Shown: positions 6,101 to 48,900 of the stretch, one piece after another | Layout: each line of letters starts with the position of its first letter | Position numbering within the stretch: position 1 is the first letter of the stretch | Assembly (NCBI GenBank): GCA_030167865.1 | Contig: JALAGF010005467.1 | Span: 1-64,000 of the forward strand | DNA length: 64,000 nucleotides | Direction of reading: 5' to 3' | DNA from: Craspedostauros australis | Lineage: Eukaryota | The notes under the pieces: generated by a model | What the model was told of the DNA's origin: nothing | The model's database searches: none | The model's input: only the letters and a program-made list of their open reading frames with translations | Position numbers and translations under genes: made by a program

Positions 6101-8059
6101 GGTTGTGCTGTCGATCAGTTTGTGGGCAGGTGGATGACTGGGTGACTGGCTTTGGCTGTCTACTCGCGCAGGTATGGCAGGGCGTGGTATGGCAGGGTAT
6201 GGAACGAATACGAAGATGGCCTGGGACTTGATGCTGCTTCCTGATTTGGTTTGTCTGTTCCTCTGCTTCTCAGCGGGCCCGTCCTTTGTGCCTCTATTGT
6301 CCCTCTATTGTGCCTCTATTGTGCACTTTGTGATCTGGCGATGTAGTGGCTATGGCTATGGCTATAGCAGTGGCGATGTTGTGGAAAGGTGATGATTGCT
6401 TGGATTCCGCTTGGTTGTGTGGTAGTTGCAGGTCGGAACGGTACTGTCGTCTCTGATGGGAGTGGGAGTTTAGATGTTGTTGTTGTTGTTGTTGTTGTGT
6501 TTATTGTGGTGGTGGTGGGTGTTGTGGTTGTTGTCTGTTGGGGAGGCGTGATGATGCGATCCTGAGCGACTACTAAGACTTTGCTCTGCTCTGTGGTCTG
6601 CTGTACTGTGCTCAGCTTTGCGCTTTTCGATCCGAACAAGAGATGTTGGCACCTGTTCGTGGCTGTTGTTGCTGTCTGAGTACTACTATCTGTCTGAGGA
6701 TCTGTATGAGTATCTGAGCCTGTTGCTTTGTTGCTCTTCCTTGCTCTGCTCTACTTGTGTTTGGTGAGGTTTCACTACTAATCCTTTGCACGATGATCGG
6801 AGGCTGTGGGGTGGTGCTGCAGATGTCGGTCACGATGACTCCTTGCTTGTGCCTTTGCAATTGAACGTTTGTTGCTTTGACTTGCGCAGAGAGGACTTCA
6901 CTTGGCTTCACGATCGTTGGTCTCTTCCTTCCTTCCTCTTCTTGTGAGCATGCGGGTTGATTCGATCTGTCTTGTCTGTCTCAGCCTGGCTGCTGCTTTG
7001 TCTCTCTTCTTGTTGGATTCGGCTCCTTCCTTCTTTGGTCTCTCGAGGTTGGGTTTGGACGTGGGCTTGGAATTTAGCTGTTGGTGGTTGCGCTTGTGTC
7101 GTTGTTTTTTCTCTTGTTCTTGGGATTGCCCGTTGTCGTCTCGTGCCCTCGTAAGAATACAAGTACTCGTGGTTTGCCTGCTTGTTCGTAGTTTCTCTGT
7201 GTGCACTCTTGTTCGTCCAGCCTTTTCGCCTTTGCCGCGTGCTCCGTGTTACCGTCAATGTTGATGTTGGTCTTGGTTGGTCGGTGTCGTTCTGATCGTA
7301 TCTCGCCTCGTTGTCACGGCGCCAAAAGTGAACACGAGCCTGCGTCCACCGCGAGCACACACGACTCGTGCGCGGCGACACAGTCGAAGGTCACCGCTAA
7401 CTGCCGCCACCAACACGCACAATTTGTCACCTTTGTGGACGACACGCACAAAAACGCATGGTGCCGCCTCGTCGTCCTCGCAATTGCAAGTCAGTCCCAA
7501 ACGATCCTGGCTTTGTCACGGCTATGTGTTGGGATGCGCCTGCAGCATCGCGTCTTGCTGTCAACCGAGATGAACGTCTTTCTTGTCGTTTCTCTCTTAG
7601 CACCTGTGCATTATGTAAATTGATCGTGGAGACATGGGTTTATTTATCGAATCCTAATGACTGGTTGCGGAATAGGGCCTGTATGGGCACAGGGCTTATC
7701 TACTTTCTTCGCCGCCATGTCTGATTGCGACATGCGAAGGTCATCGGACCGGCGAATTGGCTTTTCATCCTCTGTTGTGATTCTGCCCACTTTTCCCTCT
7801 TTCTCGTAATACCGATAGATACCATGGGTACTACATGGTATCACGTAGTATTAATGCAGTATACTGCTATTGAGTCATGTCTGTTCGCAATTGGATCGTG
7901 ACTCAAACTAGAGGAATGATGTTGGTGGCGTTCATGTTCCATGCTCGGACGTTCTGAACCAGTGTCTTCGTGGCGCCATTGTGGTGTAGAGTACTGCGTT
8001 AATTACCTACGAATAAAGCTGCTATGTTTTTTCTTCAATAGTCGATTCACTTCCGCTGT

Positions 8060-8075
8060 TCCAGTCTCTCCAGAG

Positions 8076-8110
<35 letters not shown>

Positions 8111-10335
8111 GAGAGAGTATTGGCATGCTCTGTGGATAGACGCTTGATGGCAACGGTGATCATCGTGGAGCATTGCAGTTGTGACGATCTTCATCGTCAT
8201 CCTCTCAACAAAACACGAGAAACGGCTTGATGCCGACCGAAGAAGTCATCGTGGAGGATTCCTCGCATCGTGAAGGATTCGTCACATCGTGGATCTGCCC
8301 ATTACGGTCGTTCAATGACATCCAACTCCCGAAGAAGTGTATCGATCGGAGTAGTATCGTGGTTGACTCCCCCAAGACCATCACAGAGAGATGTACCTAC
8401 TCAGATAACACAAACAACGATATCACATGAAGAGGCATAACTGCACAGCGTGGCCAAGTTGGGCATCATCGAAGGTCGTATCGTGCAAGCGAGCGAGCGA
8501 ACGAGCTAGCCAGCTTCGGATCATGATGTCCATGGTCGTATCATACCACACCACACCATACACCGTGGTGGAACTGCGCAAGTCCATGCAGGCGTGTTCA
8601 CTGACGACACGTTGCTTCGTGATCAATGCACAGGATCATGAAATGGAGGACAACAAACTTGAGCAGACGAACTCACAATCGCCATCCAAGCGCAACTGAT
8701 TTGGGACCACATACTCTGCCTGCTCTACCTACTCTACTCGTACGGTTGTACCACCAACAGCAACAGCAACAATCATCATCAGTAACAATCAGCAACGACA
8801 GCAACGACAGCAACAACAAGAAAAGGATGAACCGCAACGTGGATGCTGTCTCCAGCACCAATACCAACAGCGATCAGGATCCAGACTTCAAGACTTTCTG
8901 GAAACAACTCCATAAAAAAGGGTGGGTTGCGAAGATCGTGTTCACTCCGCAGTGCCCACAAGTAGAGCAGACCGACTGCTACAGCGTCACACCCAAGCGG
9001 ATGGAACACTGGAGCATGGCCATCGAAGTAGGATTCACTTTTGATGACTTGGAATCGATGGTGGAGCGGCACAAGCACGTTGCTTTATCACCTCGCGTTA
9101 TACTGAGTGCTTCGTTTCTCCAGGGTTGCGGGCGGATTCGCATTCGATCCCTGTATCTGGAATTTGGCACCATTGACCAATTCGAAGAAGAAGACAAGGA
9201 AGCGATTCGATTCGTACTTCGATTGGCTGCTGAACATTCACTCAAATCTCCATTTGATGGAGGCATCCGCTTGACTCAATGCTTCGTGGAGATGAAACAG
9301 CTTCACGATATCCCTCTTGTGACACATTGTGTGAAGTTGGATTCATGTGATGTTGTTGGTTGCGACAAGCTCATGTTCAACATCTCCCAAAACTCCAAAT
9401 ACGTTGGGTTTTATACCTGCAAGCTCGCCAATGGGGGCGCTGATTTGTGCAGATGGCTGTCTCCAAACAATTGCAGCGTCACCGAAGTCTCCTTTTACAG
9501 CACCCGTATCACGTGCGATACCTTGGCGAAGCTATTCCAGTCAAACAAGCGCATCAACAAGCTCAACATCGATTTCGGTTGGGTCCACAGAGCCCTGCGA
9601 ATCTACTCACAACAAGAAATCAACCAGATCATCAAACTCCTTTCAGATGCATCACACCTGAAGAAGCTCAGGGTTGCCGATATTTGGGACGGATCATCGC
9701 GACAAGAGCAGATGATAAGATTCGATGCGTTGATATCGCTCCTGGGAAACAAGAGCTTGTCATCTCTCATATACTCTCACTCTACGGATCCCAACATGTT
9801 TGAGGTTCCGCCTGAGATCTTCTCGGCACAAATAGAAGCACTTGAGCAAGCCTTGGAGCAGACTACCCAACTCATCCATCTCGACATTGATCCACGCCCG
9901 CCTGGCGAACATGGCCATGTGTACAATGCGCTTGTTGAACGTACCTTGCGACGAAATTATCGCAACAAGATGAGATCAATGCTGCGTTCCCTTCTGACAT
10001 GGTCGCGGCCACAGGCCCTCTTCGGGGAGATGCTGATGAGAACAAGCAAACGTTGGGGTCCAATGGGTTCCACGAACGAGACTTTTCACATTCTGCTGCA
10101 GTGCAGTGACATGTTGAAACAGATATGGGACGATCGTATTGCCGATGAGCAACGACCAGACACGACAGGAGAAATAGCGCTGAAGTGATATGATCATGGG
10201 CCTTCTGCCAGCGCAATGAAATTGGCAGCCAACTGGCCACACTCGTGAAAACGATGGAGCTTGTGATTGGCGCTCGGTGTTCACAAAGCAAAGAAAGGTG
10301 TGTCGATGATTGATGCGATGCTGTATCACCTTAAC
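8060..10335 (+). repeat. Duplicated unit 1 (upstream block plus LRR gene)
   Basis: Colinear similarity to 12590-15145 and 16845-19530 from the (GA)n tract onward, e.g. shared GGTTGACTCCCCCAAGACCATCACA and GCACAGGATCATGAAATGGAGGACA. 5'-shorter than the other units. Boundaries approximate. Confidence 0.9.
8827..10188 (+). CDS. RNI-like leucine-rich-repeat protein, paralogue 1 (453 aa)
   Basis: Intact intronless ORF with degenerate LxxLxL units (IRSLYLEF, INKLNIDF, LKKLRVAD, LSSLIY, LIHLDI). ATG chosen by homology with the other copies (MNRNVDAV). Confidence 0.8.
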   Translation: MNRNVDAVSSTNTNSDQDPDFKTFWKQLHKKGWVAKIVFTPQCPQVEQTDCYSVTPKRMEHWSMAIEVGFTFDDLESMVERHKHVALSPRVILSASFLQGCGRIRIRSLYLEFGTIDQFEEEDKEAIRFVLRLAAEHSLKSPFDGGIRLTQCFVEMKQLHDIPLVTHCVKLDSCDVVGCDKLMFNISQNSKYVGFYTCKLANGGADLCRWLSPNNCSVTEVSFYSTRITCDTLAKLFQSNKRINKLNIDFGWVHRALRIYSQQEINQIIKLLSDASHLKKLRVADIWDGSSRQEQMIRFDALISLLGNKSLSSLIYSHSTDPNMFEVPPEIFSAQIEALEQALEQTTQLIHLDIDPRPPGEHGHVYNALVERTLRRNYRNKMRSMLRSLLTWSRPQALFGEMLMRTSKRWGPMGSTNETFHILLQCSDMLKQIWDDRIADEQRPDTTGEIALK

Positions 10336-10611
10336 AACTGTAGGACAACTACTCTCATCCAAATCCACTGACTGCGAGCAATTCCAGTATGCCCATGCCA
10401 GTGCGTGTTCCTGCAATGACCACAAACCTGCAACGACGAGAAACCGCCTCGCGCAGCGTCAACACCAAACAAAGCAAAGAGAGTCACGATGATACTATGA
10501 TACGATACTACTATTTGGGATACTCTATCTCCGGTGATCGGCATGTTTGACTTGCGGTCAACGAAAGTCAGAGGCGTCGGCAGCGAGAGTTGCAAAAACA
10601 AAACTGATGTT

Positions 10612-12221
10612 TCAGCCCGCGAGCACGACGCCTGCTGCGATGCCACCACCGATGATGAGGACAGCCACGATGATGACGGGGACCATGATGTTGCTCTTGT
10701 TTGGTGCTGGTTCCTGCAGCGTCGGCGTTGTGGTGGTGGCCATCTGCGCCTCAATGTCGACGGAATGCATGCTTGTGGTGTTGCCGGTGTCCTGTTCGAT
10801 CACGTTCTTCGGATCGAGATGCTTGCTGGATCCCTTGGAGGGTCCGATGGATTCTTTTCGCGTGAGCTGTTTGACTGGTGGATCTTGATTGATGGTTTGC
10901 GCCGGAGCAGTTGCGGGCATCATGGGAGTGAAGGATATTTCGATGGAGTTGGTGCGCGAGACGATCTGGGTGGGCATGTCCTCGTTGGTGTCGTTGGTCT
11001 TGTTGGGGAGGATGGCGGAATGAGTGGATTGGCTTTTGTCCAAGACCACTCCGGCTGAAGCGGAACTGCTGCTCATGAGGCGGTTGGCGGATGTACGTTG
11101 ACGCTGGGTCTTTGGTGGAAGGTGGATTCTCACCATCCATGTCCATGTCCATGTCCACATTGCTGTGGTTGGATTCCTTGGAAAGGGAGTTGGTGGAGTC
11201 CTGGTTGCCATGGTTGCTGTTGGATGAATTGGAGGTGGTGGCCGTGCGCTGGGTGCCGTCGTTTTTGGCGGAGATCATGGAAGAGAAGATCCCGGAATCC
11301 CCATTGGAATGGGCACCGAATTCGCCTGGCTTGCGTTTGTTGACAGTTCTGGTGGATGGTCGCTCCGTCTCGTCGCCCTCCTCGCCTTCGACGACAGACT
11401 CCAGTCCACCTTCCTGGCGGATGGAGGACATCCTCTTGGCGGAGGAGAAGCCGAAGGACGAGCCCCCCGTTGGAGGAGGCGTTGGGGCTGCCTCTGGCCG
11501 GCGGGGGCGTCCTGGACGGCGCGGTGGTGGTGCTGCTGGTGTTGGGAGATATTCCGATCGGGCGTGGGCGCTGGTCGGAGGTGGAACGGAATTCGTCACG
11601 AAATGAGTCGTCTCGAATGGAGTCGTCCTCGTCTGTGAACTCGTCGAAGCCTCCATCGGTCATCTTGTCACCCGCCTCCTCATCGGAACACTGACTCTCG
11701 ATGTCGTCGTCATCATCGTCGATGATGTGGATGTCGTCATCTATCTGCTGCGTGTTGGCGGCGGCACCCGCGCTGACATCGTGACTCTGGCTGTGACTGT
11801 GACTGCGACTGCGGCTGTTGGCGTCGGCACCTTAATCGTCGTCGCTGTTGTCGCTGTCAATGTCGTCGTCCAGGCCTTCATCCAGACCTTCGTCGAAGGG
11901 CTCCTCGTCGCTGTCCACCACCCTCCTCGCACTGATGGAGTCCACCATGTCGGCGTCGAAGTCCTGCTGCGAGTGCATGGAGAACTCTGCCTCATTGTCA
12001 TCGACGTACACGGTCTGCTGCTTGCTGCCCAGGTCGTCCATGTACTTGGAGGTGTAGGCGGAGGCGTAGCCGGTGGGCGATGATGCTGCCGATGCCGACA
12101 TGAAGCTTGGTGATGGCGCAGAGTTGCGGCCGTACTGGTGACCGATCTTGCGTTCAATGCCGGACGTGGAGAAGGACGACCGTGAAGCCTTGCTGGTGAA
12201 TGGGAATCTGTTGTCTTCCAT
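10612..12221 (-). pseudogene. Disrupted gene for an acidic low-complexity protein ending in a single TM helix
   Basis: MEDNRFPF.. from 12221. In-frame TAA at 11834-11832 with coherent reading beyond it. Frameshift at the G6 run (11468-11463) and a second near 11060. Ends at TGA right after TM IMVPVIIVAVLIIGGGIAAGVVLAG. Confidence 0.7.
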
Positions 12222-12589
12222 CGATTTGTGTTGTCTTCTGTTGTCTTCTGTTGTGTTGTATTGTGTTGCCTTGTATTGTGTTGTTTTGAGATTGATCCGC
12301 TCTGTTGCTTCGTTCAGTCGTTCAATCGCACAATGTTGAATGTTGAATGGACGGCCTGCTGCGACTAACGTACTTGCTGATGGCGCAGTATCCAGTATCC
12401 AATGTTCAGTGGTGGATCCACTCTCTCTCTCCCTCTCTCTGTCCAGTGATTCTTGAGGCAACGGGCTGATGCGATGCGATGCGATACAACACTGTGGTTG
12501 ATGTTGATGATGGTGTCGCCGTTGCGATTGTTGCGCCTGTCAGAGGAAATGGCCATCGGTGGTTCTCAATCCACAACGGAAGAAAAGTG

Positions 12590-15145
12590 TCGGGGATGGT
12601 GATGACAGTGAGTCCGTTGCCACCACCATGCAAGCGATGCAGATGGCACCAATCATCCTCTTTTGATGCATCGACGATGCCATTGGTTTCACTGTTGTCA
12701 TTGCTGTGATTCTTCTGGTTGCGGCTGTCTCTGTGGTTGGGCGATCAATGAGTGAGGAACCAAGTCAACCAGCCGGCATCGTTCGAAGTCTCTCTAGAAG
12801 CAGAGAGATAGAGGCAGAGAGAGTGTGTTGGTATGCGTGCTCTGTGGATACACACTTAATGGCAGCGGTGATCATCATGTGAGCGTTACGGTTGTGACCA
12901 TCCGCATCAGTATTCTGCAACGATGTCCGCAGCACCATGACCATCGTCATCGCCACAGAGTTCGCAATGATTGAGTGAGGCGAGATGAGTCCTGGATACG
13001 CTTGTCGTCGATTGAAACACGAATGGTGTCATCATCGTCATCGCCATCGTCATGTTCTCGACAAAACGCGGGAAACGCCTCTGATTTCCACGGAAGAAGT
13101 CATCGTGGTGGATTCTCCACATCGCGGACCAGCCCATCGGAGCCGCCCGATAGCATCCAACTCCCGAAGAACTGTATCGATCGGAGAAGTTTCGTGGTTG
13201 ACTCCCCCAAGACCATCACAGAGGGATGTACTCATATTACACGGTCTATGGTATCACATAAAGAAGCGCAACTGCACAGCGTGGACAAGTTGGGCACCAT
13301 CGAAGGTCGTATCGTGCGAGCGGGCGAGCTGGGCAGCTTCGGATCATGATGTGAATATCCACGGTCGTACCTTGCCATACCACACCACACACCTTGGTGG
13401 AACTGCACAAGTCCATGAAGGCGTGTTGACTGATGGTAGATCCCTTCGTGATGAATGCACAGGATCATGAAATGGAGGACAGCAAACTTGAGCAGATGAG
13501 CTCATAATCGCCATCCAACCGCAACTGATTTGGGACTACATACTCCGCCTGCTCCACCTGCTGTGCAACCAACACTATCGACAGCCCCCACAATAACCAG
13601 CATTGACAACACATAGCAGGATGAACCGCAACATGGATGCCGTCGCCAACATCAATGCCAACAGCCATCATGATCCGGACTTCAAGATTTTCTGGAAGCA
13701 ACTCCAGGGCAAAGAGCTGTCACCGAAGACCGTGTTCACTCCACAGTGCACACCAGCAGAGCAGATGGAGTGCTACAGTGTCACACCCAAGCGGATGGAA
13801 CACTGGAACATGGCCATCGAAGCAGGATTCACCTTTGCTGACTTGGAATCGATGGTGAAGCGGCACAAGCACGTTGCTGTATCACCTCATGTTCTACTGA
13901 GCGTTAGGTATTTCAAGGTCTGTTGGCAGATGTACATTCGATCCCTTGGTCTGGAATTCGGCTGCGATGACCAATTCGGAGAAGAAGACAAGCAAGTGAT
14001 TCGATTCGTAATTCGATTGGCTGCCCAACACCCACCCAAATATGCATTCGACAAAGGCATCAGCTTGGCTCAACACTTCGTGAAGATGAAGCAGCTCCAC
14101 GATATCCCTCTTGTGACACATCGTGTGCATTTGTGCTCATGTGATCTTGTTGATTGCGACAAGCTCATGTTCAACATCTCCCAAAACTCCAAATACGCTG
14201 TGTTTCAAAAATGTAAGCTCGCCAATGGGGGTGCTGATTTGTGCAGGTGGCTGTCTCCACACAATTGCAGCATCACCGAAGTATCCTTTTTAGACACCCG
14301 TGTCAGTTGCGATAGCTTGGCAAAGCTATTCCAGTCAAACAAGCGCATCAACAAGTTCAACATCACTTTCTATGGGGACTACGGCGCCCAAGACATCTAC
14401 TCGCGACAAGAAATCGATCGAATCATCCAACTCCTTTCAAATGCATCACACCTGAAGAAGCTTTGGGTTTTCGGTATTTGGGTTGGGATATCGGAGCCAG
14501 ATCAGGATGCAATGTTCGACACATTGATATCGCTCCTCGGAAACAAGACCTTGTCATCTCTCGAATACCGTCACTATGGGGATCCCGACATGTTTGAGGT
14601 TCCACCCGAGACCCTCTCGGCACAAATGGAAGCACTTCAGCAAGCCTTGGAGGAAACTACCAATCTCACCTATCTCGACATTTCTCCACGCCCGCCCAAC
14701 GAACATGGCCGTGTGTACAAGGCACTTGTTGGACGCATCTTGCAGCGAAATCATCGCAACAAGGTGAGAGCAGTGCTGTGTTCCCTTCCGACGTGGTCGC
14801 GGCCACTGGCCTTGTTTGGGGAGATGCTGATGAGAACAAACAAACATGGGGGTATGATGGGTTCCACCAATGAGACTTTCCATCTTCTGTTGCAGGGCAG
14901 TGAGATGTTGAAGCGGACATGAGATGACAGGAGAGCGGATCCGCTCGTCTGAGTTCATGGTGCTTCTGCTTGTTGTGTGGAAAAGAAAGGCACAGCGATG
15001 ATTGATGCGATCCTGGATGGCCTTGGAGTACTCTGGTCGTCGAATAATTAGAACAGAGAATGAAGACAGTATTGATACTCTGGTGCATGTGAGTGTGTTC
15101 TTGTATGAGCTGGATGGAACAAGGGAGATGGTTGGGTGATTGTGA
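12590..15145 (+). repeat. Duplicated unit 2
   Basis: Homology with unit 3 runs from GGGGATGGT.ATGACAGTGAGT to GGAACAAGGGAGATGGTTGG in the 3' flank. Boundaries approximate. Confidence 0.9.
13621..14922 (+). CDS. RNI-like LRR protein, paralogue 2 (433 aa; tail shortened by TGG>TGA)
   Basis: Open over the whole LRR body. The stop aligns with Trp of WDD in copies 1 and 3. Confidence 0.8.
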   Translation: MNRNMDAVANINANSHHDPDFKIFWKQLQGKELSPKTVFTPQCTPAEQMECYSVTPKRMEHWNMAIEAGFTFADLESMVKRHKHVAVSPHVLLSVRYFKVCWQMYIRSLGLEFGCDDQFGEEDKQVIRFVIRLAAQHPPKYAFDKGISLAQHFVKMKQLHDIPLVTHRVHLCSCDLVDCDKLMFNISQNSKYAVFQKCKLANGGADLCRWLSPHNCSITEVSFLDTRVSCDSLAKLFQSNKRINKFNITFYGDYGAQDIYSRQEIDRIIQLLSNASHLKKLWVFGIWVGISEPDQDAMFDTLISLLGNKTLSSLEYRHYGDPDMFEVPPETLSAQMEALQQALEETTNLTYLDISPRPPNEHGRVYKALVGRILQRNHRNKVRAVLCSLPTWSRPLALFGEMLMRTNKHGGMMGSTNETFHLLLQGSEMLKRT

Positions 15146-15233
15146 TTGCGTGCGGTAGTTGGTGAGAAGTATGGAATGTCTATTAACAGACAGCGAAAGC
15201 GTCCACAGAACCTATCTGCACCACATCACGATT

Positions 15234-16830
15234 TCACATCGCGATTTCACACTGCTCCACGCATTCTCGTATCCTCGGAACGGCAGCATCCAGAAAGATC
15301 TTCTTCGCAACGCCCGTCTTGCCAATGGTGAAGACGAACACATCCCGGAACTTGGTCAACAGTCCCGACGAGGCCTCCAGGTATCCCAGCAGACCAGCCT
15401 TGGCTGTGGTGGTCGTGACGTCCGTGATGGTCGCGATGGTGGACCATCGCTTGTCATTGTATTCTGTCTGCAGGATGTCTTCGAGGCTGTTCTCACCATT
15501 GGCTCGTTCATCGTACTGCATATTGTATTGACGAATGCGTTGGCCAGAAAGTAGGCGTCTTGGATGGCCTGATTGGCGCCCTGTCCAAGGAACGGTGGCA
15601 TGGACATGCGCTGCATCACCACAGACAGTCAGGATGGCGCCCTTGTCTGCGCCGGTGCTTCCATTGCGGTTGCGGTTATCGTTGGTGGCCACCATCGCCT
15701 TGGTCCATCGCACAAAGGGACTGTGGAAGTAGATCCCCAACGCGAAAAAGCGATCGGCATTACCCATGAGTTGGTCAATGATGGACCTTGTGGTGTGCGT
15801 GGGGATCTTGGCATCATCAATCTGCTGTCGCATCTGTTGCTGGATGCGTTTGGCCTCGGATGATGCCTTCTAAGCGACGTTCTCGTCATCCTTGCTGACG
15901 GCGGGTTTGGAGAAGGGCAAGGCGTTGCGGAAGACGATGAAGCAGCATCGGGTGGTGCCGCGCTTGATACCATTACTGCAGTTGTCAGTGAGGCAGTGAG
16001 TGCCGTTGCCAAAGTGTTGCTGCAGGACGGAATCTTGTGCAGTTTTGTTCGTTCCGTCGTCTCTACTACCGCTGCCGCTGCTACTATCGCTGTCCTCTTT
16101 GGCGACATCCTGGATGGCGTACCGGATGCGAATACCGGAGTACACAGCTGGCGAATTGCGTTGATTGTCTGATGGCGACCGCGCATCACCGTTGATGTAC
16201 TGTTTGACGACGCTATCGACACCATCACAGCCCACCACCATATCGTACGGCCCTTCCCTCATCCCGTCCTGAAATGTGAGATGGATGGCATCTCGCTTCT
16301 CCGTCTTTTCACATTCCACATTCATCACCTGCTTGAATTGATGCACGGGCATCGTCTTCAGCTCCTCCAGCGGCACCTCCTGCAACGCTCCTCGCATGAT
16401 GGAGTATGGTACGCCATGACTCCACCGTCCTCCTGGATCATCGCTTTCGTCGTGTCGCCGCCCGCATCCATGATCATCTGTCTGAGATTGAAGTGCAGCA
16501 GCTGAAACTCCTCGTTGGATGAGATCCAGATGGTGGTCTTGGATCGCACGGTCGTCAACGGCAGCGCGGCATCGGCCACCGTGCGCTGCAGGGACGGAGA
16601 GATCTGCTTCAGTACCGCCATGCCACCGTTGAGTTGCGCGCCCGCACCTGCGACGACGTCCAATTCTGGTCTCGCATTGAAGCATGTCACATCAATGTTG
16701 TGTGCATCGTTGCCGTTGTTGTTTTCGAAAGCATGCGCCAAGGAGAGACCGACGATGCCACCATCGATGACTGCGACCTTCCGTATTGGTTGGTGATTCC
16801 CATTCCCGTTGCTGTTGCTGCTTCTGTGTT
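15234..16830 (-). pseudogene. FAD-dependent monooxygenase pseudogene (FAD_binding_3 / aromatic hydroxylase type)
   Basis: KVAVIDGGIVGLSLA (altered Rossmann motif), DMVVGCDGVDSVV and CGDAAH/MPPFLGQGANQAIQDA are split across frames. Frameshifts near 16410, 15600 and 15540; in-frame TAG at 15872-15870. Confidence 0.9.
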
Positions 16831-16844
16831 GAACGAAGATGGTG

Positions 16845-19530
16845 GGGATGGTTATGACAGTGAGTTCGTTGACACCACCATGCACGCAATGCAGATGGCA
16901 CCAACCATCCTCTTTTGATGCATCAACCACGTTGTTGGTGTCATTGATGCCAATGCTGCCGTTGCTGTGATTCTTCTGGTGGTGGCTGTCTCTGTGGTTG
17001 GGCGATCAATGAGTGAGGAACCAAATCAACCAGCCGACAGTGTCCGAAGTCTCTCTCAAGAAGCAGAGAGAGAGAGAGAGAAGCAGAGTATTGGTATGCT
17101 CTGTGAATAGATACTTGACGTCGGCGTTGAGCATCGTTGAGCATTGCGGTTGTGACGATCTGCATCAGTATTCTACAGCGATGTCTGCATCACCACCATG
17201 GCCATCATCGTCATCGCCACAGAGTTCGCAATGATTGGGTGAGGCGAGATGAGTCCTGGATACGTTTGTTGTGGATTGAAACACGAGTGGTGTCAACATC
17301 GTCATCGTCATCGTCATCATCCTCTTGGCGAAACGTGAGAAACGCCTCTCTGATGCCGACCGAAGAAGTCATCGTGGTGATTCCTTCACATCGTGGATTC
17401 TTCACATCGTGGGTCCGCCCATCGGAGTCGTTCGATGACATGCAACTGCCGAAGAACTGTATCGATCGGAGTAATAGTATCGTGGTTGACTCCCCCAAGA
17501 CCATCACAAAGGGATGTACTCATGTTACATGAACTATGGTATCACATGAAGAGGCACAACTGCACAACGTGGCCAAGTTGGGCATCATCGAAGGTCGTAT
17601 CGTGTGTGCGAGCGAACTAGCCAGCTTCGGATCGTGATTTGCCTGTCCACGGTCGTACCATACCACCATACCACGCCACGCAACGCCATACACTGTGGTG
17701 GAACTGCGCAAGTCCATGCAGGCGTGTTGACTGACGATACGTTGCTTCGTGATGATCAATGCACAGGATCATGAAATGGAGGACAGCAAACTTCAGCAGA
17801 TGAGCTCATAATCGCCATCCAAGCGCAACTGATTTGGGACTACATACTCTATTAGCTCTACCTGTTCTACTCGCCAACAGGGACGGCCACCAACAGCAGT
17901 AACAAACAGCAACAGCAGAAACAACTGCGACAACAGCGACAAGACAAGGATGAACCACAACATGGATGCTGTCGCCAACACCAATACCAACAGCGATCAT
18001 GATCCAGACTTCAAGACTTTCTGGAAACAACTCCATCGGAAATGGTGGATCCCGAAGACCGTGTTCAATGTGCAGAGTTTTCCAAGACAGCAGATCGACT
18101 GCTGCAGTGTCACACCCAAACGGATGGAACACTGGAACATGGCCATCGAAGCAGGATTCGCCTTTGCTGCCTTGGAATCGATGGTGGTGCGGCACAAGAA
18201 CGTTGCTTTATCACCTCGTGTTCTACTGAGCGAATCGTTTCTTCAGAACTGCGGATGGATGGGTATTGGATCCCTGTATCTGAACTTTGGCAGCAATGAC
18301 CAATTCGGAGAAGAAGACAAGCAAGTGATTCGATTCGTAATTCGATTGGCTGCCGAACATTCACTCAAATCTCCATTCGATGAAGGCATCCGCTTGACTC
18401 AAAGCTTCGTGGAGATGAAGCAGCTCCACGATATCCCTCTTGTGACACATCGTGTGCATTTGTGCTCATGCGATCTTGTTGATTGCGACAAGCTCATGTT
18501 CAATATCTCCCAAAACTCCAAATGGGCTTTGTTTCATATGTGTAAGCTCGCCAATGGGGGCGTCGATTTGTGCAGGTGGATGTCTCCAGACAACTGCAGC
18601 ATCACTAAAGTATTCTTTGTATGCAACCCTATCAGTTGCGATAGCTTGGCAAAGCTATTCCAGTCAAACAAGCGCATCAACAAGCTCACCATCGCTTTCT
18701 GTTCGGCCCACGGCGCCGAACAAGTCTACTCACAACAAGAAATGGACCAGCTCATCAAACTTCTTTCGGATACATCACACCTGAAGCAGCTCGGTGTTTC
18801 CGGTATTTGGAACGGGCTATCGCGACAAGAACAGGATACGAGGTTCGACCATTTGGTATCGCTCCTGGGAAACAAGAGCTTGTCATCTCTGGCATGTGAT
18901 GGCTGTTGGCATCCCACCATTTTTCAAGTTCCGCCCGAGACCCTCTCGGGACAAATGGAAGCACTTCAGCAAGCCTTGGAGCGGACTACCCAACTCACCT
19001 ATCTCCACATTCGACCATGCCCGCCTGCCGAACATGCCCATTCGTACAATACGTTTGTTGAATGTAGCTTGCGGCGAAATCATCGCAACAAGGTGAGAGC
19101 AGTGATGTGTTCCCTTCCGACATGGCCGCGGCCACTGGCTCTGTTTGGGGAGATGCTGATGAGAACAAGCAAACATCGGGGTCTACTGGATGCATTGGGT
19201 CGAGAGGGTACAATGGATGCAGTGGGTCTAATGGGTGAAATGGATCCCATGAGCGAGACTTTCCATCTTCTACTGCAGGGCAGTGAGACGTTGAAACAGG
19301 CGTGGGATGACAAGAGAGCGGATCGGCTCGTCCGAGTTGATGATCCTTCTGCCCGCTTTGTGGACAAGGAAGGCACATCGATGATTGATGCGATCCTGCG
19401 TTGCCTTGGAGCACTCTGCTCATCGAATAGCAAGAACAGCGCATGAAGACAGTATTGATACTCTGGTGCATGTGAGTGTGTTGTTGTGCAAATAGGATGG
19501 AACAAGGGAGATGGTTGGTTGATTGATTGG
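16845..19530 (+). repeat. Duplicated unit 3
   Basis: Colinear with units 1 and 2. Followed at 19546-19572 by another copy of a 27-mer from its own 5' part. Confidence 0.9.
17950..19446 (+). CDS. RNI-like LRR protein, paralogue 3 (498 aa)
   Basis: Intact ORF with the longest C-terminal tail and a repeat-derived insertion (GLLDALGREGTMDAVGLMGEMDPM). Confidence 0.8.
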   Translation: MNHNMDAVANTNTNSDHDPDFKTFWKQLHRKWWIPKTVFNVQSFPRQQIDCCSVTPKRMEHWNMAIEAGFAFAALESMVVRHKNVALSPRVLLSESFLQNCGWMGIGSLYLNFGSNDQFGEEDKQVIRFVIRLAAEHSLKSPFDEGIRLTQSFVEMKQLHDIPLVTHRVHLCSCDLVDCDKLMFNISQNSKWALFHMCKLANGGVDLCRWMSPDNCSITKVFFVCNPISCDSLAKLFQSNKRINKLTIAFCSAHGAEQVYSQQEMDQLIKLLSDTSHLKQLGVSGIWNGLSRQEQDTRFDHLVSLLGNKSLSSLACDGCWHPTIFQVPPETLSGQMEALQQALERTTQLTYLHIRPCPPAEHAHSYNTFVECSLRRNHRNKVRAVMCSLPTWPRPLALFGEMLMRTSKHRGLLDALGREGTMDAVGLMGEMDPMSETFHLLLQGSETLKQAWDDKRADRLVRVDDPSARFVDKEGTSMIDAILRCLGALCSSNSKNSA

Positions 19531-21445
19531 GAGGTGTTCACTTGTGATCAATGAGTGAGGAACCAAGTCAACAAGTCATCATTGTCCTCAAGGGGAGGCC
19601 AATTTTTGGTAGCCTTTGGTAACAAGTGGTATTTAGTCGCATGAGTCAATTGTGACGTAGACGCTGGTACATGTTGCACGTCAGTCCCACTCGAAGACGC
19701 CCAAAAAACACCTTGTCTGCCACAAACCTCCTCGGCAAGTCCATGCTGCTCAGTTTGTTTGAGCTCTCCTTTCGTGATCACTCCCATGTGTGGCTTTTTA
19801 TCACCCTCTCCGGCTTTGGTGGTGATTGGTTGGGTAGTTGTGGAGATCTGTTCGTTTCTCTGGAGCCGCCACTCGTTCTCGCCATTCACGAATGCCAATC
19901 ATCGCGATGTATCGTGGCGAATTTCTGTGTGCCCCAGCGCGTGTGAACACGCGGTGGAAATGATCCAATACAATGTGGTACCGACCGATGCGTTCCTCAC
20001 ATGCTACGATCAGTTCCTTATAGCCTGGTATCATCCATTGTGAATTCGTTCATCGTATAGCATTGTAGTTGATGATATGGTTAATAGGTTCTACAATAGC
20101 GTTCCAGTTCTTCTCCGGAATACCGTACACCAGAAACCTTCTTGGCAACGGCAACTTGGATGTATGTGTGCCGTTGCATCCATCCTGCTTGGGGGAGCAA
20201 TGATCCCTTGGATAGCAGCAGCACACAAGAGCAGTCCAGAATAGAGCAGAGTAGACTGTTTCACACCGAGGAGTTCAACCTCGTTATGCTCTGACCGCTC
20301 TTCATTGGATCCTCCGCATCGCTGAGCATGTGCAATTGCGCCGAGAATAATTTCCACGCAATGTGAGCACATTCTAGCATGTATCGCGTGCGCAAGGTAG
20401 AGGCAAGTGTTCGATTGACCATAGCGTCGCTGAATATCAGTCAAGAACATCAGGCTGCCTCCACAAAACGGTTCGAACGCGGTTTGATAGAGCACGAACA
20501 GCGACTGCGTCAACGACTTCACCCATCGCATGAGCGTGAGATAAGTGGCTAGTCTTTGCGAGGGTGTAGCAACCGGCGACAATGAAGACAGTTGTGGCAC
20601 GTGACCAGGAAGCGGTGTTTCCTCGCGAGGATAGTACGCGATGAAGTGACGAAAAACTTGCAACTGATATATCTTTGGAGGAAGTGAAGGACGAAGACCA
20701 AGACTACATGGGCAGGTAAAGGAGAGGATAATGCGTCTATTGAAAGCAACGGCACGATGATCCGACATCAGCGCGAGGCACAACCTTGCATCAAGTAGAG
20801 AGACTCAGGTGAGCAACGCAGTTCGAATCTACAACACGTAAAAACGCACGATATTTTTTGGCGCCAAGTGTTGTGCGTTCACGGATCGATGATCATGGCT
20901 GTCACGAGCATTAGTGACTGACTTCAAACACCAAAAGCAACACACAATAGCATTCTGGACTGCTGACCAGCACACCACCCGAAGCAGAATGAAGTGACGA
21001 ATACAGTCATGCCATTCACTTGAGCAATAGACGAAACAGAATTGGATGCGGGTCTTTGGAAGACAGTTGGTCGAGATTGGACGAAGAAGCAACAAATTTC
21101 TGTACCAGAACGTCGTAGACTCTACGCGGTTACCAATGGTTACCAACGAAAAGATCCGTATTCACGTCCATACGTCGTCCGTATGAAAAAGGCCGATAAA
21201 GGGTAAAAAGAGGCATCGAGATGAACAGGAAGCGGATACCGTTTGCCTACAATGAACACATCAACAGAGAGCTCTCACACCCCTCTTCCCAATGATGTGA
21301 AGATGTCAGGCAACGGCCATCAACTCATTGAATGGTTCCATGTGCCGTTGGTGATAGGCCAACAGTTACCAATAATTACCAAGAATCCCCAAACAAGCGA
21401 AAATTAGCAACTAGCTTCTAAAGAGTACTCGTGTCTGCTGATTCT

Positions 21446-42942: not shown

Positions 42943-45900
42943 TTACATCATCTCGTCATGGCTTTCGAACGAATCGGATATTCCTAAGCTTTCATCGTCC
43001 AGAGTCGCATGCTGATCGAAGTCACTCCCATTGCCATGGCTGTCATCGTCGTCATCATCGTCATCATCATCCACAAAGTCTTCCTCTGATGATCCGAGAG
43101 AAATGGACTCTTCTTCGTCATCATCATTTGGTTTGACCGGCGGTGTCTTGCCATCCTCGTCGCGTGTGTGCATGGAGTTTGGCACACCTCGGAAATCCAC
43201 TTGGACGAGTGCTGCTCTCTTTCGTCGTGGTTGCGGTTGTGGTGTACTCGCGCTGGTGCCGGCATTGGCTTCGGCACCATTTCGTCGAGTCGCAACTAGT
43301 GGCACGTGCTCCTCAAAGTGAATGGATGTCAACTCTTTTCGAATCGGCCGTGCGATAAACCGTGCCACAGAGGTCATGTTTGCATTGCTGCCGTGTCCTG
43401 GCATCGTTGCTCCTGAATCAACCGTCGGCGATCGCGATCCAAACATCTGTGGCATGCTGCGTTGAGTACTCGCGGATGCGTCATGCAACGCGGCTTGATT
43501 GCCTGGAGACATTTCATCCAATCGCTTCCGAAATGTCGCAACAGCCCGTATCAAATATTCCGATACCTTGCCGTCACCACCATCACCAACAATCCCTCCA
43601 TCAGAGTGATTCAAGGAGAAAGTCGACGATGGCTTGACAGCGATCTTGCGTTTCTTTGCGACGGTCCATTCCGAGGCACCACACCATGCTTCCAATTTCT
43701 GGCAAACGTGCAGTCTTGCCAGATTCGTCAGCTCGTTGAAAGACTCGGCCGAGGCAGGGTCTGCCATACCTTCTGCCTTTTGGACCAACGAGACGCTTGG
43801 TTGGGCGGAACGCCATTCTGTGCACTGGTATAGCTTGTCTGTTGAGAGGGAAAGCATGAGCTTCGACGCGCTCGACACGGTTCGGCCGAAACTTGGTGGG
43901 AAGACCGTTCGATGGTGACGATACGTTTGGATCAGCACTCCGAATGTTTCGAATATTACTTCGACGTATCGGAAAGGACTGTCGCTGTTGCGACTCGGTT
44001 TGGCTGCAGTTTCTGTCCCTGGCCTCCGTTTGGTTGATCGAGTGGTAGGATCTACGAAGATCAGAGAAGCAATCGTCATGTGCAGCAGCACTTCGTAAGC
44101 CGAAGCGAGAGACGACAGCGACAGATCCTTGAAGGCGCATGTGGCGTCATATCGGATCATTGGTGTTTCATCCTTTTGAGGTCTGTAGTCGTCGTCGTCG
44201 TCATCATCATAGTAATAATCATCGCCGTCGTCGGCGGTGTCTTCAACGTGTTGATCGTTGTCGAGATCACCATCGTGTTGGCGGTGGTATTTCTGAGTCT
44301 GAGGGCTGTTGCCATTGCTGCGGTCGGTGGCACACACGGCCTTCCGGAGGAATTCCATGACTGTCTCCGTGCATGCCAACAGAAATCCAAGCAACCTCTC
44401 GGGTTGTTCCTGAACTTGTAGAATGCACAAGCTCCAATGCCTCCGCATGCCCTCAACGAAGTTTGTGCCCTTATCGTATCGTCTTGTCAAACACCGTGAT
44501 ATCTGATCATGGAGCTTGTTCTGGGCGCTTCCCTTTGTCACACCGCGTTGATTCGAAAGCAGTGATGAGTCGGTGCAATCATCCTTCAATGCGGCAAGCC
44601 CGTTGCATTGCGATTCTGATTTTAGATTCTTCAGAAGCTCCGAAACCGATGATGTCTCCGTGGCAGACTCTATCATTGATACAACCTCCAGCAGATGGAT
44701 GGAAAGATCGCCGAGCTTGCCGTTGCTCGCGCTCTGTTTTGTGGAAATTGGAATTGAGCCTTCATGAAGCATCGCCCAGCTCAGATCCAACATCGTATTC
44801 ATCATGCCGTAGTCGCCAGTACCATTGCTGTCAGCATCGGCTTCGGTAGAATGCGCTGCTAACAGGCATAGGATTTCCAGCAGTTGAAATGTCATGGCAG
44901 AATCTCGGCAACGACGAACATGGGATAGCAGAGAGTTGGCGACGGAATGTCGAATGGATGAATTTCCATCGCTGCGATCGTTCTCGTCGTTCTCGTCGTT
45001 CTCACCACGTCCACGATCGTGTGAGGGATAATTCAGGTCGAGGTGCTGATCAAGGTTGATGCTTAGATCGGCGACGCTGTGACGATGCTTCTGATTCGTG
45101 TGAAGGTGTCCATGTTTGTCCAGAGCATGCTTCAGTGGTCGTAGGAAGTGTTCCTCTACGCTGTTTCGAGACTGTTGCTTGCTCTTGCATGCCTCTCGGA
45201 GCGACAGCACCAGCAAATGGCAGTGCAAGAGGCTCTGCTTGTGAATATCACTTTGATGCAATTTCTGGAAGCAAATACGTATTGGGGGCGGACGGGACGT
45301 TAGAAGAGCGAACACGCACATTGCATCAAGAGTTGTATACTTCACGACACGAGCACAGCAAGAGGCCATCTTCGATACAGGTAGAGTCTCACCTTCCTCT
45401 TCGAAGATGATCGATTCGATGGTCCCTTCGCAGCTGAAATACGATTCAGCAATTGAACAAGATTGTCGAAATATTTCTCGTGGATACCGTCCCGGAGATG
45501 CATGCGTGAAATGCCGACGTGCGACGATCCGCTCTTTGCGTCGGTCACCTTCGGGACGTCACGTTCCAGATGATGGTGTTCGTTGCGATTTGAGTGCTGT
45601 TGTGGGTGCCGCTGTGGCGGTAGCCGGAGCCAGGTGATGAGTTGGTTCATACAATCAGTTGCCAGACGGAGCACCCGATAAGAATCATCCGTGGCGTCCG
45701 CTCGATTCGTGCCAAATTTGTGACTACGCAGAACTCTCTGGAGTTCTGGGCAACCCAAGCATGTCCAAAGAACTCCAGCATCGATGAATACGTTGGGTTG
45801 AAAGAACTGCTGAAATGCGACATCGATCGTTTCGCAGATTGTTTGGACGGTGGCGCCAAGATTCAATTGGTTGTCCTGCAATGAACCAATATCAATGTAA

Positions 45901-48900
45901 GTAAGCGTCGTTCAGAAGGGAAAGGGGAGATAGGAGGAATACGCACGATCACCGAAATTGGTGAGAAACTGGCATCATGTGGACCGGCGATCTTCTCCAT
46001 TGGAATGACGAGGCCTCAGCAATCCATCCTCTTCATTGTCGTCACCGTCAACAACATTGTTTCCTGTTCGTCTTACCTCGTTGAGCATCCTGTGAAGGAT
46101 ACTCCGTTTGCGTTTGATCTCTCTCGTCTGCTTGCTCAGTTGCTTGCCCGATTTCTTCTTTGGTGCCTCCATCGAGCGCACCACCATCTTCAGCATCTGT
46201 TTGATCACTGGCAGTTTGCCGCGAATGGTGAAGAGCTTGGCCAGCTGATAGCTCAATTGTCGAAGGGTGACGTCATTGGCGGCAACGTTGCCACTGGTGA
46301 CAGAGCTTGAAAATGACTGACCGCTTGCGCACACGGCTGGTGATAGATTTGGCGAATGGCCCCGGACTTGAGCATGAGCATGAGCTTGCGTCTGCATTGC
46401 CGCGAGTTCATCCTGGTGGTGTGTGTATAGATTGGAAAGAATCGCTGACGACAGACCCATTCCGATCAGCAGCGATAGGCAGTAGCGCTTCAGCTCCTGC
46501 ACAAGTCCAAGAATTCCATATTCTGGATTGATGCAAAAGAGGATTTCCTGCAGCTCCCGTTCGTGCAAGGTGAACTCTGCCTCGGTGCCGTTCAGCTCGA
46601 AGGATCCCAGGCATTGCTGCAGACATCGAAGCAGCATCATCTGCCTTGCTGTAGTAGCATTGAAGCAATCGAGGTAGGTGGACGAAAACTCGATCGGTGA
46701 CTTCAGCCATGCCTCCGGCTTCCATTTGGATGCTGCTGATGTGGGAGTCGACGGTGTCGATGATTTGCGGGTGAGAGCGATGGTGCGGCCGACTTTCAGG
46801 TACTCGTACGTCAAGTCATGAACCCATCTGCAGGTATCCATCCATGTCGAGGTGCTGTTGACTTTGGCATCGGTCAGAAGTGTGGATGTTGAAAACACGA
46901 GGTTTCGGGACGAGGGTGACTCCGCATGTCCGTTGGCGTTGTCGGTGGGGTGATGCTGCGGAAAGAAGCTGGTGTATGATTGGAAGCCCAAGTCGCCTTT
47001 GCTCTTGTGACTCTGGTGCTGAGCCAAGTACCAATCCAGGTTGAGGACAAGCCCTGCATTCGTGAGACCCTGCTGCATGACCTTGAATGCCCTGAGCCCA
47101 TCCTTCGGAGTTGGACAGCTGACAGCCATCGTCGTCATGCAGCACAATGCCTCGGATCCGATTCTGTAATCGATTTGACCGTACGTGGCATCCATGAATA
47201 GCTGGAACACGCAGTGCTTCAATCTATCACCTGCATCCCGCGACTCCAGGGCATCGTCTGTGTCGATGATGCGCCGGTACAGCCTCAGCGCGTTGATCAG
47301 CGATGTATCTGAAAGTCCCATGAGAAGGTTTCGGATGGCGCTGAGGATGAAGCCCCGCAAAGATGCTGAGCCAGCGTTCGTGTCGTTTTGAAGAACCGCA
47401 ATGACGCATCTGTTGATCATGTCGGCCGTCTCTGAACATTCCTCAGCTTCCAGCTCGGCAATTAGGTACCTGATTGTTGAGGACAGTTCCGTCCAGTCGT
47501 CGGACGATGCGATATCTGCAACGAAGCCGAGATATAGGCGCCGAGCAGGATCAACTCTCGTTCTTCTCTGAGTTCGTTGTCTTGGTACCTTGACCAGCGT
47601 TGCTGACAGTGTTGGTGATGGTGTTATTCGTGCTGCTGGTACTTCCGCTTGTGTTCCTATGGACTCACGCTGATTGGTTGTGGAGTGCTCCAGAGGTACG
47701 AGTACTTGTCGATTGCGACGTTTATCCGCTTGCTGCAGTCCCTCCAAGAAGAAGATTTTGGACTGCGAAGTCATTTGTTTGTATGTTGCTGTCATGCATG
47801 GCTTGAGCTGGGCGGAAGAAGATGCAGTGTCATGGGAGTCATCGTCAGCGTCGGATTGCATCAGTCGGACGAACCATGTCACCAAGGTTGTGGTCAAGTA
47901 GTCATTCGCAAGCACTGGCTTCATTTCTGGAATGCAGACCATCGCATCGAATGCGCCGTATGGGAATTTCCCGTTCATTCCCAGGAGCCGCACTGTGGAC
48001 AGTATGGATGCACGGTATTGGTTCATCTCGCAGAGTTTGAGCATGACGTAGACATCGACGCAAATGATCCGTGACGGATGTTTGAGACTTGTCATGGTAT
48101 GAGTGCGAGCCTGCTGAACGGTGCCCATTCCTTCATCATGGTTGAAAGTTCCTCCTAACAGTTCTTCAATGATGCAAAAATACGTCTTCGCAAAGCTTTG
48201 CTGAATCGGATGCCCTCGCTGCTGGTGCCGCTGGTGCAATTGGCACGACAGCGCATGACAAATGTCGGCGAGCAACTCCAGCCGACGACCTGACTTTCTC
48301 CCTCGATTGCGCACCATGCACCCAACCTCGTTTCGCAATGCATGTATACAATGTCGGACGTGAGCATCCGAATTGGAAATCGCGATAATCTCATGGAACA
48401 ACGCCGTGAAATCCTCATCTTCCACCCACGCCAATGATCGGATCGCAAATTGGAACAGGAAGTCTTCTTTATCATTGTCACCATCTCCATTCCCGATGGT
48501 AACAGCACGTCCCGTACCTTCCGCTGTCGCTTCTGTGTTTGTGGATGCAGTGCTCGGATGAGTATTGGCATGTTCATATCCATCTTCATCAGGATGAAGC
48601 TGTGCCAAACATTGTAGCAAGGCAAACACCATCTTTGGATTTTTACGCACGGCACTTTCGAAGGCTGGAATGACGTCGCGTTCGATTACGGTCTGGGCAT
48701 TGTCCTGGCTCAGCAAGAGTGCCAACGGTAGCATGTCCAAGTATAGCACCTGACAATCAGCGTCATCTCTTTGCGCAGAGATTGCCATCAGCAGGTTCTG
48801 GCGTAGATGCTGATGTGCCGTGCCGATGTTCTTGACGATTACCATGTAGATATTGCGCAGGATGCTGACCGGCAGTCCGTTCCTGTTGCGAAGCCGTCTC

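Follow-up and report, generated by a model that had tools for sequence, protein, structure and literature searches.

The first 64,000 positions of contig JALAGF010005467.1 of the diatom Craspedostauros australis (GCA_030167865.1, forward strand), the stretch that was analysed as a whole and is called the window here, carry three long plus-strand open reading frames (ORFs) between 8 and 20 kb, all of them intact. The best-supported view of the proteins they encode is that they form a recently expanded, lineage-restricted family of soluble proteins built of leucine-rich repeats (LRRs) only. We further judge it probable that these duplicated paralogues have diversified under selection on a protein-binding surface. 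At about 49-59% G+C, the window is ordinary chromosomal DNA of a eukaryote. The three proteins, referred to as copies 1, 2 and 3 in their order along the contig, are 66-70% identical to one another, and codons 1-412 align without a gap.

A sequence-only reading of the window had described the three proteins as near-identical scaffolds interrupted by hypervariable patches, and this description holds: all three copies carry the stretches CDKLMFNISQNSK, CKLANGG, LAKLFQSNKRINK and SLLGNK unchanged, and each of the six variable strings that had been cited is found as written. The same is true of the observation that third codon positions are fixed in a patch where first and second positions are changed. 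At 9571-9588 of copy 1 the codons are GAT TTC GGT TGG GTC CAC, at 14365-14382 of copy 2 ACT TTC TAT GGG GAC TAC, and at 18694-18711 of copy 3 GCT TTC TGT TCG GCC CAC.

Selection was analysed with a Goldman-Yang-type codon likelihood, in code written for this analysis, on the three-taxon tree and 432 gap-free codons. Pairwise Nei-Gojobori (NG86) estimates gave a synonymous divergence (dS) of 0.21-0.235, a non-synonymous divergence (dN) of 0.18-0.19 and a ratio of the two (ω) of 0.79-0.86, and model M0 gave a whole-gene ω of 1.15 by maximum likelihood (ML). Compared to M1a (log likelihood, lnL, -3191.38), M2a (-3164.76) is strongly preferred (2ΔlnL 53.2, p=3e-12), with about 12% of sites at an ω of about 10, and the M7/M8 and M8a/M8 comparisons return an equal 2ΔlnL. 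Simulation of 44 data sets with the parameters of the fitted M1a gave a largest 2ΔlnL of 7.4 and a single value above 5.99; thus, the signal is not produced by the code. When double and triple nucleotide changes were allowed, 2ΔlnL was 28.0 (p=8e-7); with three codon-rate classes in both models it was 11.6 (p=0.003), and with rate classes and multi-nucleotide changes together it was 9.95 (p=0.007). To fit, the rate-class null has to let about 9-11% of codons change about 4.5-4.8 times faster; the alternative fits with no such classes. The result of diversifying selection survives the rate classes by a much smaller margin, and a class of codons with dN/dS above 1, beyond what the local mutation rate gives, is found at p=0.003-0.007 under the strictest null.

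The LRR assignment that had been made from the letters stands at the level of the fold, in two AlphaFold2 models and in structural matches, but not at the level of sequence families. A Pfam scan of the three proteins (433-520 aa) returned no LRR family at E<=1, the best match (E=0.065) being to unrelated families, and a family profile compared with PDB sequences found no LRR and nothing credible. AlphaFold2 was run on a seven-row family alignment, which gave models for copy 3 (mean predicted local distance difference test score, pLDDT, 70.7, with 85-92 over residues 150-250) and for copy 1 (mean pLDDT 72.7); over the LRR core the score is 85-95 in the two models. DSSP places strands at the same residues in both, namely 168-172, 192-196, 220-224, 245-249, 280-284, 313-317 and 351-354, and each predicted strand is followed by a helix, as in an alternating strand/helix solenoid. 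By eye, the strands read x-hydrophobic-x-hydrophobic-x, with the hydrophobic residues kept and x varied, often after N-K/S-x-L. Repeat lengths are irregular, 24-38 residues, and about 11-12 turns are predicted.

Consistent with this, Foldseek against the PDB gave 11 matches at E<=1e-3 (best E 1.4e-4, TM-scores of about 0.3), and among the matches listed almost all are LRR proteins, chiefly NLRP/NLRC4, ribonuclease inhibitor (RI), tropomodulin and axonemal LRRs. Alignment of the Foldseek list with VIA-align reached Z 14.4 for 3un9 (183 residues aligned, root-mean-square deviation 3.6), Z 13.4 for RI (258 aligned) and Z 12.6-13.9 for NLRP3, NLRP9 and NOD2; for repeat proteins a Z below about 13 can be unspecific, and the best of these values reach or slightly exceed that mark. 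Z was 8 or more in 249 of 991 chains, with model ranges often running from about 16-46 to about 380; several of the alignments to LRR chains begin at model residues 16-46, a point in favour of the irregular N-terminal repeats. ESM Atlas neighbours (scores 0.95-0.88) fall in RanGAP, LRR_TMOD-LMOD and LRR_6 clusters, several of which are commonest in Bacillariophyta. We conclude from the models that the proteins are likely to be irregular RI-like LRR horseshoes (residues about 30-380) with a helical C-terminal extension (about 360-450). As had been read from the sequence, they carry no signal peptide, transmembrane (TM) segment or NTPase domain, by Pfam and by hydropathy. A simple Kyte-Doolittle scan, with no dedicated predictor, found no TM segment (highest 19-residue mean 0.92-1.18) and no hydrophobic N-terminus in the three proteins (N-terminal means -0.78 to -1.39), and the Pfam scan found no kinase, NTPase or other domain in them. 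The proteins are probably soluble and cytosolic.

The models allowed the codons to be divided by predicted structure, that is, by the DSSP strands and not by variability. For the 69 codons of the seven LRR strands, each extended by five residues, the proportion of synonymous differences (pS) is 0.186 and that of non-synonymous differences (pN) 0.27, for an NG86 ω of 1.56, and the LRR strands alone give 1.81. The corresponding values are 1.26 for the N-terminal strands plus three residues, 0.69 for helices and 0.60 for the LRR region outside the patches. Of the first 412 codons, 290 belong to no strand patch; in these pN is 0.126 and pS 0.180, and silent divergence is even along the genes at pS 0.18-0.19. 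That pS is the same within the patches as beyond them speaks against a mutational hot spot at these places or the import of conversion tracts. The ML estimates of ω are 2.3 for the LRR patches, 1.7-1.8 for the N-terminal ones (strands plus three residues) and 0.85 for the rest, and ω=1 in the LRR patches is rejected with 2ΔlnL of 20.5-21.2 (p=4e-6 to 6e-6 under F3x4, F61 and F1x4). That dN/dS should exceed 1 at the variable sites had been anticipated from the codon pattern, and is what both the site models and this patch ω give.

Individual sites follow the same structure. A naive empirical Bayes (NEB) probability above 0.8 is reached at 21 sites: seven lie in LRR strand patches (197, 224, 225, 315, 317, 320, 355), two in the longer strand-to-helix loops (258, 290), one at a helix start (360) and eight in the N-terminal repeats (30, 34, 44, 46, 95, 100, 105, 152), and the remaining sites are considered below. 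At NEB>0.5, residues 160-360 have 20 of 85 positions selected in strands and following loops vs 7 of 116 elsewhere (Fisher p=6e-4), with 1 of 39 in helix-to-strand loops, and residues 16-412 have 31 of 149 vs 15 of 248 (p=1.6e-5). Conserved hydrophobic positions and changed positions take turns along the strands, the arrangement that would result if inward residues form the core and outward ones face the concave surface. Given the geometry of LRRs, the selected sites would be co-located on one face and one rim.

The reading frames themselves are being kept. Nucleotide identity is 0.83-0.84 in coding sequence vs 0.82-0.85 in the upstream flank, and gaps are absent from 1234 aligned coding bases vs 18 runs, mostly not multiples of three, in 651 upstream columns. 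A neutral simulation from a majority ancestor expects 3.5-4.7 stops per copy and gives chances of zero stops of 0.026, 0.008 and 0.013 for the three copies, the product of which, about 3e-6, is the joint neutral chance of three open 432-codon frames. It is the odds of so few stops, together with the indel-free coding sequence, that indicate that the frames are maintained.

The family is almost an orphan. A HMMER search of 1.84 billion representatives gave five matches, of which four are true relatives, and no fused or longer form of the family was seen among these representatives; in a scan of metagenome DNA, 367 pattern stretches matched and none was a relative. P0004 (479 aa) is 41-48% identical and aligns end to end, P0005 is a 246 aa fragment with 68% identity, and P0006 and P0007 (about 100 aa each, 65-68% identical) bear MMETSP1442 names and an organism label starting 'Craspedosta'. 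MMETSP being a transcriptome project, relatives at a paralogue-like distance are transcribed in a raphid diatom. The fifth match, P0008 (5740 aa, 11 stretches, E=2e-5), was rejected as a chance match inflated by repetition: by BLASTP it is 29-38% identical over 26-55 residues, in one unit of a long tandem repeat.

These relatives were not used in the selection tests, and they can be compared with the window copies at the patches. Residues shared with any window copy amount to 42% in the patches vs 60% elsewhere in P0004 (p=9e-4), 65% vs 82% in P0005 (p=0.017) and 56% vs 88% in P0007 (p=0.0016). Relative to P0003, family insertions stand after residues 114, 253 and 314, each within a patch. Contigs of sequencing run X1, for which the library type is not on record (RNA is a guess) and whose cover and gaps were not used as evidence of expression, span all three genes and 0.4 kb upstream, 164 of 535 contigs being at least 99% alike; runs X2 and X3 hold next to nothing of the window stretch. 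The X1 variant letters in coding regions (40 of 67 rows) change at least 12 codons, at least nine of them non-synonymously, and among the rows listed the non-synonymous codons are 92, 101, 194, 196 and 197 of copy 1 and 95, 98, 99 and 105 of copy 2, which form clusters at 92-105 and 194-197. One X1 contig swaps exactly 30 bases after 9570, a ten-codon patch, between flanks that match two different copies. The X1 variants may be other paralogues, alleles, another strain or assembly chimeras, and are taken as hints. In a separate observation, an X1 contig has 36 other letters at a join of copy 2 and copy 1, at the place that corresponds to an insertion in copy 3 (19186-19239).

Several points weigh against selection on a binding surface as the explanation of these patterns. 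Only three DNA sequences were analysed, with our own likelihood code and not with PAML or HyPhy, and codon-rate classes absorb most of the site-model signal (2ΔlnL from 53 to 10-12). The 'plus five' margin of the partition was set after the patches of the sequence-only reading were known, and is hence not fully a priori. With ω of 0.85 outside the patches and about 1.15 (ML) over the whole gene, much of the protein is barely constrained. Of the sites with NEB>0.8, 296 and 301 are helix residues and 412 belongs to the C-terminal part; the helix sites mean that the concave face does not hold all selected sites. The earlier claim that the variable residues sit on the concave face is thereby narrowed: it stands for the strands and strand-to-helix loops, which are enriched, but not for residues 296 and 301. 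A Pfam match to an LRR is absent, the tail of copy 2 has been lost through a premature TGA, and P0006 shows no patch effect (74% vs 82%, p=0.44). Which two of the copies agree also shifts mildly from one part of the gene to the next (chi-square p=0.02), the matching pair being copies 1 and 3 at codons 101-150 and copies 2 and 3 at 151-200; for the latter pair the longest run has p=0.011. Some exchange among the copies is therefore likely, and because three sequences have one unrooted tree, such exchange affects local branch lengths but leaves the topology as it is.

The main rival is relaxed constraint only, in which young redundant duplicates drift near-neutrally and the patches are unconstrained exposed residues. 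It has much to draw on, including the whole-gene ω of about 0.8-0.9 (NG86) or 1.15 (ML), the ω of 0.85 outside the patches, a coding divergence equal to that of the upstream flank (0.83-0.84 vs 0.82-0.85 identity), the truncation of copy 2 and the differing tails, and a null with about 11% of fast codons at ω=1 takes up most of the site-model signal. Yet neutral exposed sites give an ω of at most 1, and ω=1 in the patches is rejected (p of about 5e-6); the rejection persists with rate classes (p=0.003-0.007), patch pS is not elevated, and the frames are open and free of indels. Relaxed constraint accounts for the near-neutral background and not for a patch ω above 1, and as the whole explanation we hold it to be rather unlikely; were it correct, the genes would be a clean example of a solenoid that tolerates wholesale turnover of its surface. 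Clustered mutational input, by multi-nucleotide mutations or short gene-conversion tracts from diverged members, could inflate dN/dS as well, and would fit the two-position differences in many patch codons, the halving of the test statistic when double and triple changes are allowed, the mildly mosaic sharing, and the X1 contigs that join flanks of different copies around replaced patch letters, which are possibly assembly artefacts. We consider it improbable: conversion would carry silent differences along, but pS is 0.186 in the patches vs 0.180, the third positions of the cited patch are unchanged, M2a is still preferred with multi-hit rates (p=8e-7), and the alternation of kept hydrophobic and changed outward residues points to a filter at the level of the protein.

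That the genes are decaying pseudogenes or a repeated non-genic element, with the LRR over-interpreted, would be in keeping with the lack of a Pfam family or PDB sequence match, with only four true relatives in 1.84 billion representatives, with the premature stop of copy 2, and with a repeated unit that takes in about 0.75 kb of flank and a 27-base motif that recurs. It is very hard to reconcile with three open 432-codon frames (about 3e-6 under neutrality), the absence of coding indels, two confident and concordant solenoid models, a 479-aa relative that aligns end to end at 41-48% identity and two relatives from a transcriptome collection, and we give it next to no weight. Programmed diversification, of the kind driven by diversity-generating retroelements or by cassette assembly, was also considered and set aside: the scan of ORFs next to the genes found no reverse transcriptase (RT) or other Pfam domain, and all four bases take part in the changes at the patches.

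We thus favour a history in which the gene was duplicated locally and the copies then came under diversifying selection on a protein-binding surface. Under this model the hydrophobic core, the helices, the helix-to-strand turns and the helical tail would have been kept, and the outward residues of the inner strands and the strand-to-helix loops would have been replaced faster than silent change, each copy binding a different or changing partner. LRR proteins grip their partners with the surface formed by inner strands and loops, as is established for RI and NLR-type LRRs. The candidate partner might be a protein of a pathogen or selfish element, or a fast-evolving endogenous protein, e.g., one involved in mating. 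Because the proteins carry no signalling domain, they are more likely to be binders, inhibitors or adaptors, similar to RI or PRAME, than receptors that signal by themselves. The arms-race function that the sequence-only reading had proposed, or an immune or mating role, is possible. The broadest version, in which raphid diatoms hold an intracellular repertoire of LRR-only recognition proteins or inhibitors that has been diversified by conflict with viruses, parasites or selfish elements, is in our view a long shot. To our knowledge, no intracellular immune receptor family has been characterised in diatoms. If the broad version were true, the family would be a domain-minimal counterpart of NLR/RI-type immunity, in which paralogues and alleles each have their own binding face, and the conserved leader and short upstream ORF described below would give the repertoire a shared translational control.

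The positions of the genes, their LRR cores and their patches are collected in the table. Two corrections apply to the earlier description. The start at 8827 is the ATG that is common to all copies (13621 in copy 2 and 17950 in copy 3), and in copy 1 only, an upstream ATG at 8626 adds 67 codons in frame. Copy 2 terminates early, at a TGA (14920-14922) where copy 3 has TGG at the matching codon; in-frame homology continues past this TGA to 15054, interrupted by two more stops. Copy 3 has an in-frame insertion of 18 codons (19186-19239) in the low-confidence C-terminal part that is absent from copies 1 and 2, and the tails after '...LLQxSxxLK', where model confidence is low, differ between all family members. 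By tblastn there is no fourth copy in the window.

The duplicated unit exceeds the gene, since about 0.75 kb before each ATG is repeated too, with a pairwise identity of 82-85% and many indels; presumably this region is the promoter and 5' leader. Two blocks stand out within it. At 8418-8477, with counterparts near 13249-13308 and 17537-17596, 85% of positions are the same in all three copies, and this block could be a promoter or leader element. At 8636-8695 the figure is 90%, which is above most coding sequence. Copies 2 and 3 have a conserved upstream ORF of 14 codons, differing by one residue and lying about 165-190 bases before the main ATG; in copy 1 (8626-8670) the stop of this upstream ORF reads CGA and the frame continues into the main ORF. 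No Rfam family was found in 7500-20500, and the sequences between the three units are unrelated to one another.

Features of the three LRR paralogues and their upstream regions (positions in the window)
Feature	Position	Strand	Details
Copy 1 coding sequence	8827..10188	+	453 aa plus stop; ORF list, alignment, AlphaFold2 model mbbe847b57fbe
Copy 2 coding sequence	13621..14922	+	433 aa; ORF open from 13603; ORF list, alignment
Copy 3 coding sequence	17950..19446	+	498 aa; AlphaFold2 model md77163a74713
Copy 1 duplicated upstream region	8204..8826	+	counterparts about 13057-13620 (copy 2) and about 17324-17949 (copy 3)
14-codon upstream ORF before copy 2	13455..13499	+	conserved; alignment
Twin 14-codon upstream ORF before copy 3	17759..17803	+	ends TGA as in copy 2
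Copy 1 LRR core	9328..9903	+	seven strands plus five residues each; between conserved helices
Copy 1 patches	9328-9357, 9400-9429, 9484-9513, 9559-9588, 9664-9693, 9763-9792, 9877-9903	+	DSSP strands
Copy 2 LRR core	14122..14697	+	corresponding seven patches
Copy 2 patches	14122-14151, 14194-14223, 14278-14307, 14353-14382, 14458-14487, 14557-14586, 14671-14697	+	
Copy 3 LRR core	18451..19026	+	corresponding seven patches
Copy 3 patches	18451-18480, 18523-18552, 18607-18636, 18682-18711, 18787-18816, 18886-18915, 19000-19026	+	
N-terminal irregular repeats, residues 37-152	8935..9282 (copy 1), 13729-14076 (copy 2), 18058-18405 (copy 3)	+	further variable strand patches

Around the units, a 27-base motif occurs at 12743-12769, 17004-17030 and 19546-19572 with 0-1 mismatch, where none is expected by chance. 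Two of the occurrences precede copies 2 and 3 by about 0.9 kb, and the third stands 100 bases past the stop of copy 3; the motif resembles a remnant of a duplication boundary or the beginning of a fourth unit now lost. A transposon reading of the unit was rejected, the proteins being without a transposase or RT domain and the motif fitting duplication boundaries better. Copies 2 and 3 share an extra 0.36 kb upstream (12602-12960 vs 16852-17224) that is missing from copy 1; since its far end overlaps the first codons of a minus-strand ORF (16358-16930), a 5' fragment of this neighbour was seemingly co-duplicated. (GA)n-rich, microsatellite-like tracts are found in the same relative upstream place of each unit, at 8063-8119, 12787-12827 and 17048-17088.

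Between copies 2 and 3 lie three overlapping or adjacent minus-strand ORFs (15234-16930), one of which starts with a glycine-rich stretch resembling a dinucleotide-binding motif; they have no Pfam match at 1e-5 and are probably a single gene with introns or frame changes. Neighbouring genes in the window encode an ERG4/ERG24 sterol reductase, PRMT5, a photolyase/cryptochrome, a metallophosphoesterase and a GFO/IDH/MocA oxidoreductase. A minus-strand ORF of 437 aa at 29491-30804 matches Pfam HtrL_YibB (E=7e-14), a family described as a bacterial protein of unknown function, in otherwise eukaryotic gene surroundings. Long ORFs at 42943-45369 (808 aa), 45975-49391 (1138 aa) and 53290-55695 (801 aa) match no Pfam family at 1e-5 and are, by tblastn, unrelated to the LRR trio. 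The assembly has a gap of 104 N at 50183-50286.

Among known systems, the trio is closest in predicted fold to RI and to the LRRs of NLRP, NLRC and NOD proteins, with short inner strands and outer helices, and, as in RI, the LRR would be the whole functional body of the protein. It differs from them in having no detectable sequence similarity, in its irregular repeats of 24-38 residues and in its family-specific helical tail. Unlike NLR/STAND receptors, the three proteins have no NACHT, NB-ARC or other NTPase domain (Pfam), and unlike LRR receptor-like proteins and kinases they have no signal peptide, TM segment or kinase (hydropathy scan, Pfam). Binding-face residues that change faster than silent sites are a familiar feature of immune and reproductive receptor families, and positive selection on hypervariable residues of the concave face is textbook knowledge for plant NLR and receptor LRRs. 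The trio resembles these plant proteins in its conserved scaffold, in hypervariable exposed strand residues with dN/dS>1 and in its arrangement in a local cluster, whereas the plant proteins belong to a different LRR class and have NB-ARC, kinase or TM parts attached, which the trio is without.

PRAME acts as a ubiquitin-ligase adaptor. The PRAME proteins are intracellular and LRR-only, and are reported to be amplified by local duplication and positively selected in mammals (PMC1262708, PMC3037382). The trio is alike in being LRR-only, locally duplicated and probably positively selected; one ESM Atlas neighbour cluster (score 0.88), commonest in diatoms, is auto-named 'PRAME C-terminal domain'. 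Among stramenopiles, the LRRs of Ectocarpus ROCO proteins and LRR-kinases offer the nearest parallel: models M2, M3 and M8 find positively selected sites on their concave face, and the families undergo rapid birth and death, according to Zambounis et al. (2012; PMC3341825). Those LRRs have one exon per repeat, are shuffled and are fused to a ROC-COR GTPase or a kinase, whereas each gene of the trio is one open frame, is fused to no partner domain and shows no sign of shuffled exons.

Diatom LRR proteins have been described before. In the available sections of the respective papers, LRR genes are among the main tandem duplicates of Seminavis robusta (PMC7335047), two LRR receptor-like genes of Pseudo-nitzschia have Ka/Ks>1 (PMC5485032), MRP2 and MRM2 are mating-type-biased LRR proteins with a TM segment (PMC6261938), and secreted LRR proteins are abundant in Nitzschia putrida (PMC9054022). 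A search of the literature on diatom LRRs and on Craspedostauros australis, which left subscription papers and supplements mostly outside, listed no description of the family of the trio and none of site-level diversification for a soluble diatom LRR family. The sequence-only reading knew of nothing similar in diatoms, and this is to be qualified: tandem LRR expansions and cases of Ka/Ks>1 in diatoms, and positively selected concave LRR residues in a brown alga, were already published. Since the family is missed by Pfam-based surveys, counts of the diatom LRR repertoire are probably too low. Diatoms suffer heavy mortality from viruses and parasites and their recognition machinery is largely unknown, and a small soluble LRR family is a tractable handle on it. 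The described diatom LRR proteins are, in the sections available, recognisable by Pfam and none is analysed site by site, whereas the family of the trio is soluble, invisible to Pfam and represented by very few sequences; what is new is this Pfam-invisible family, the general type of system being already well known.

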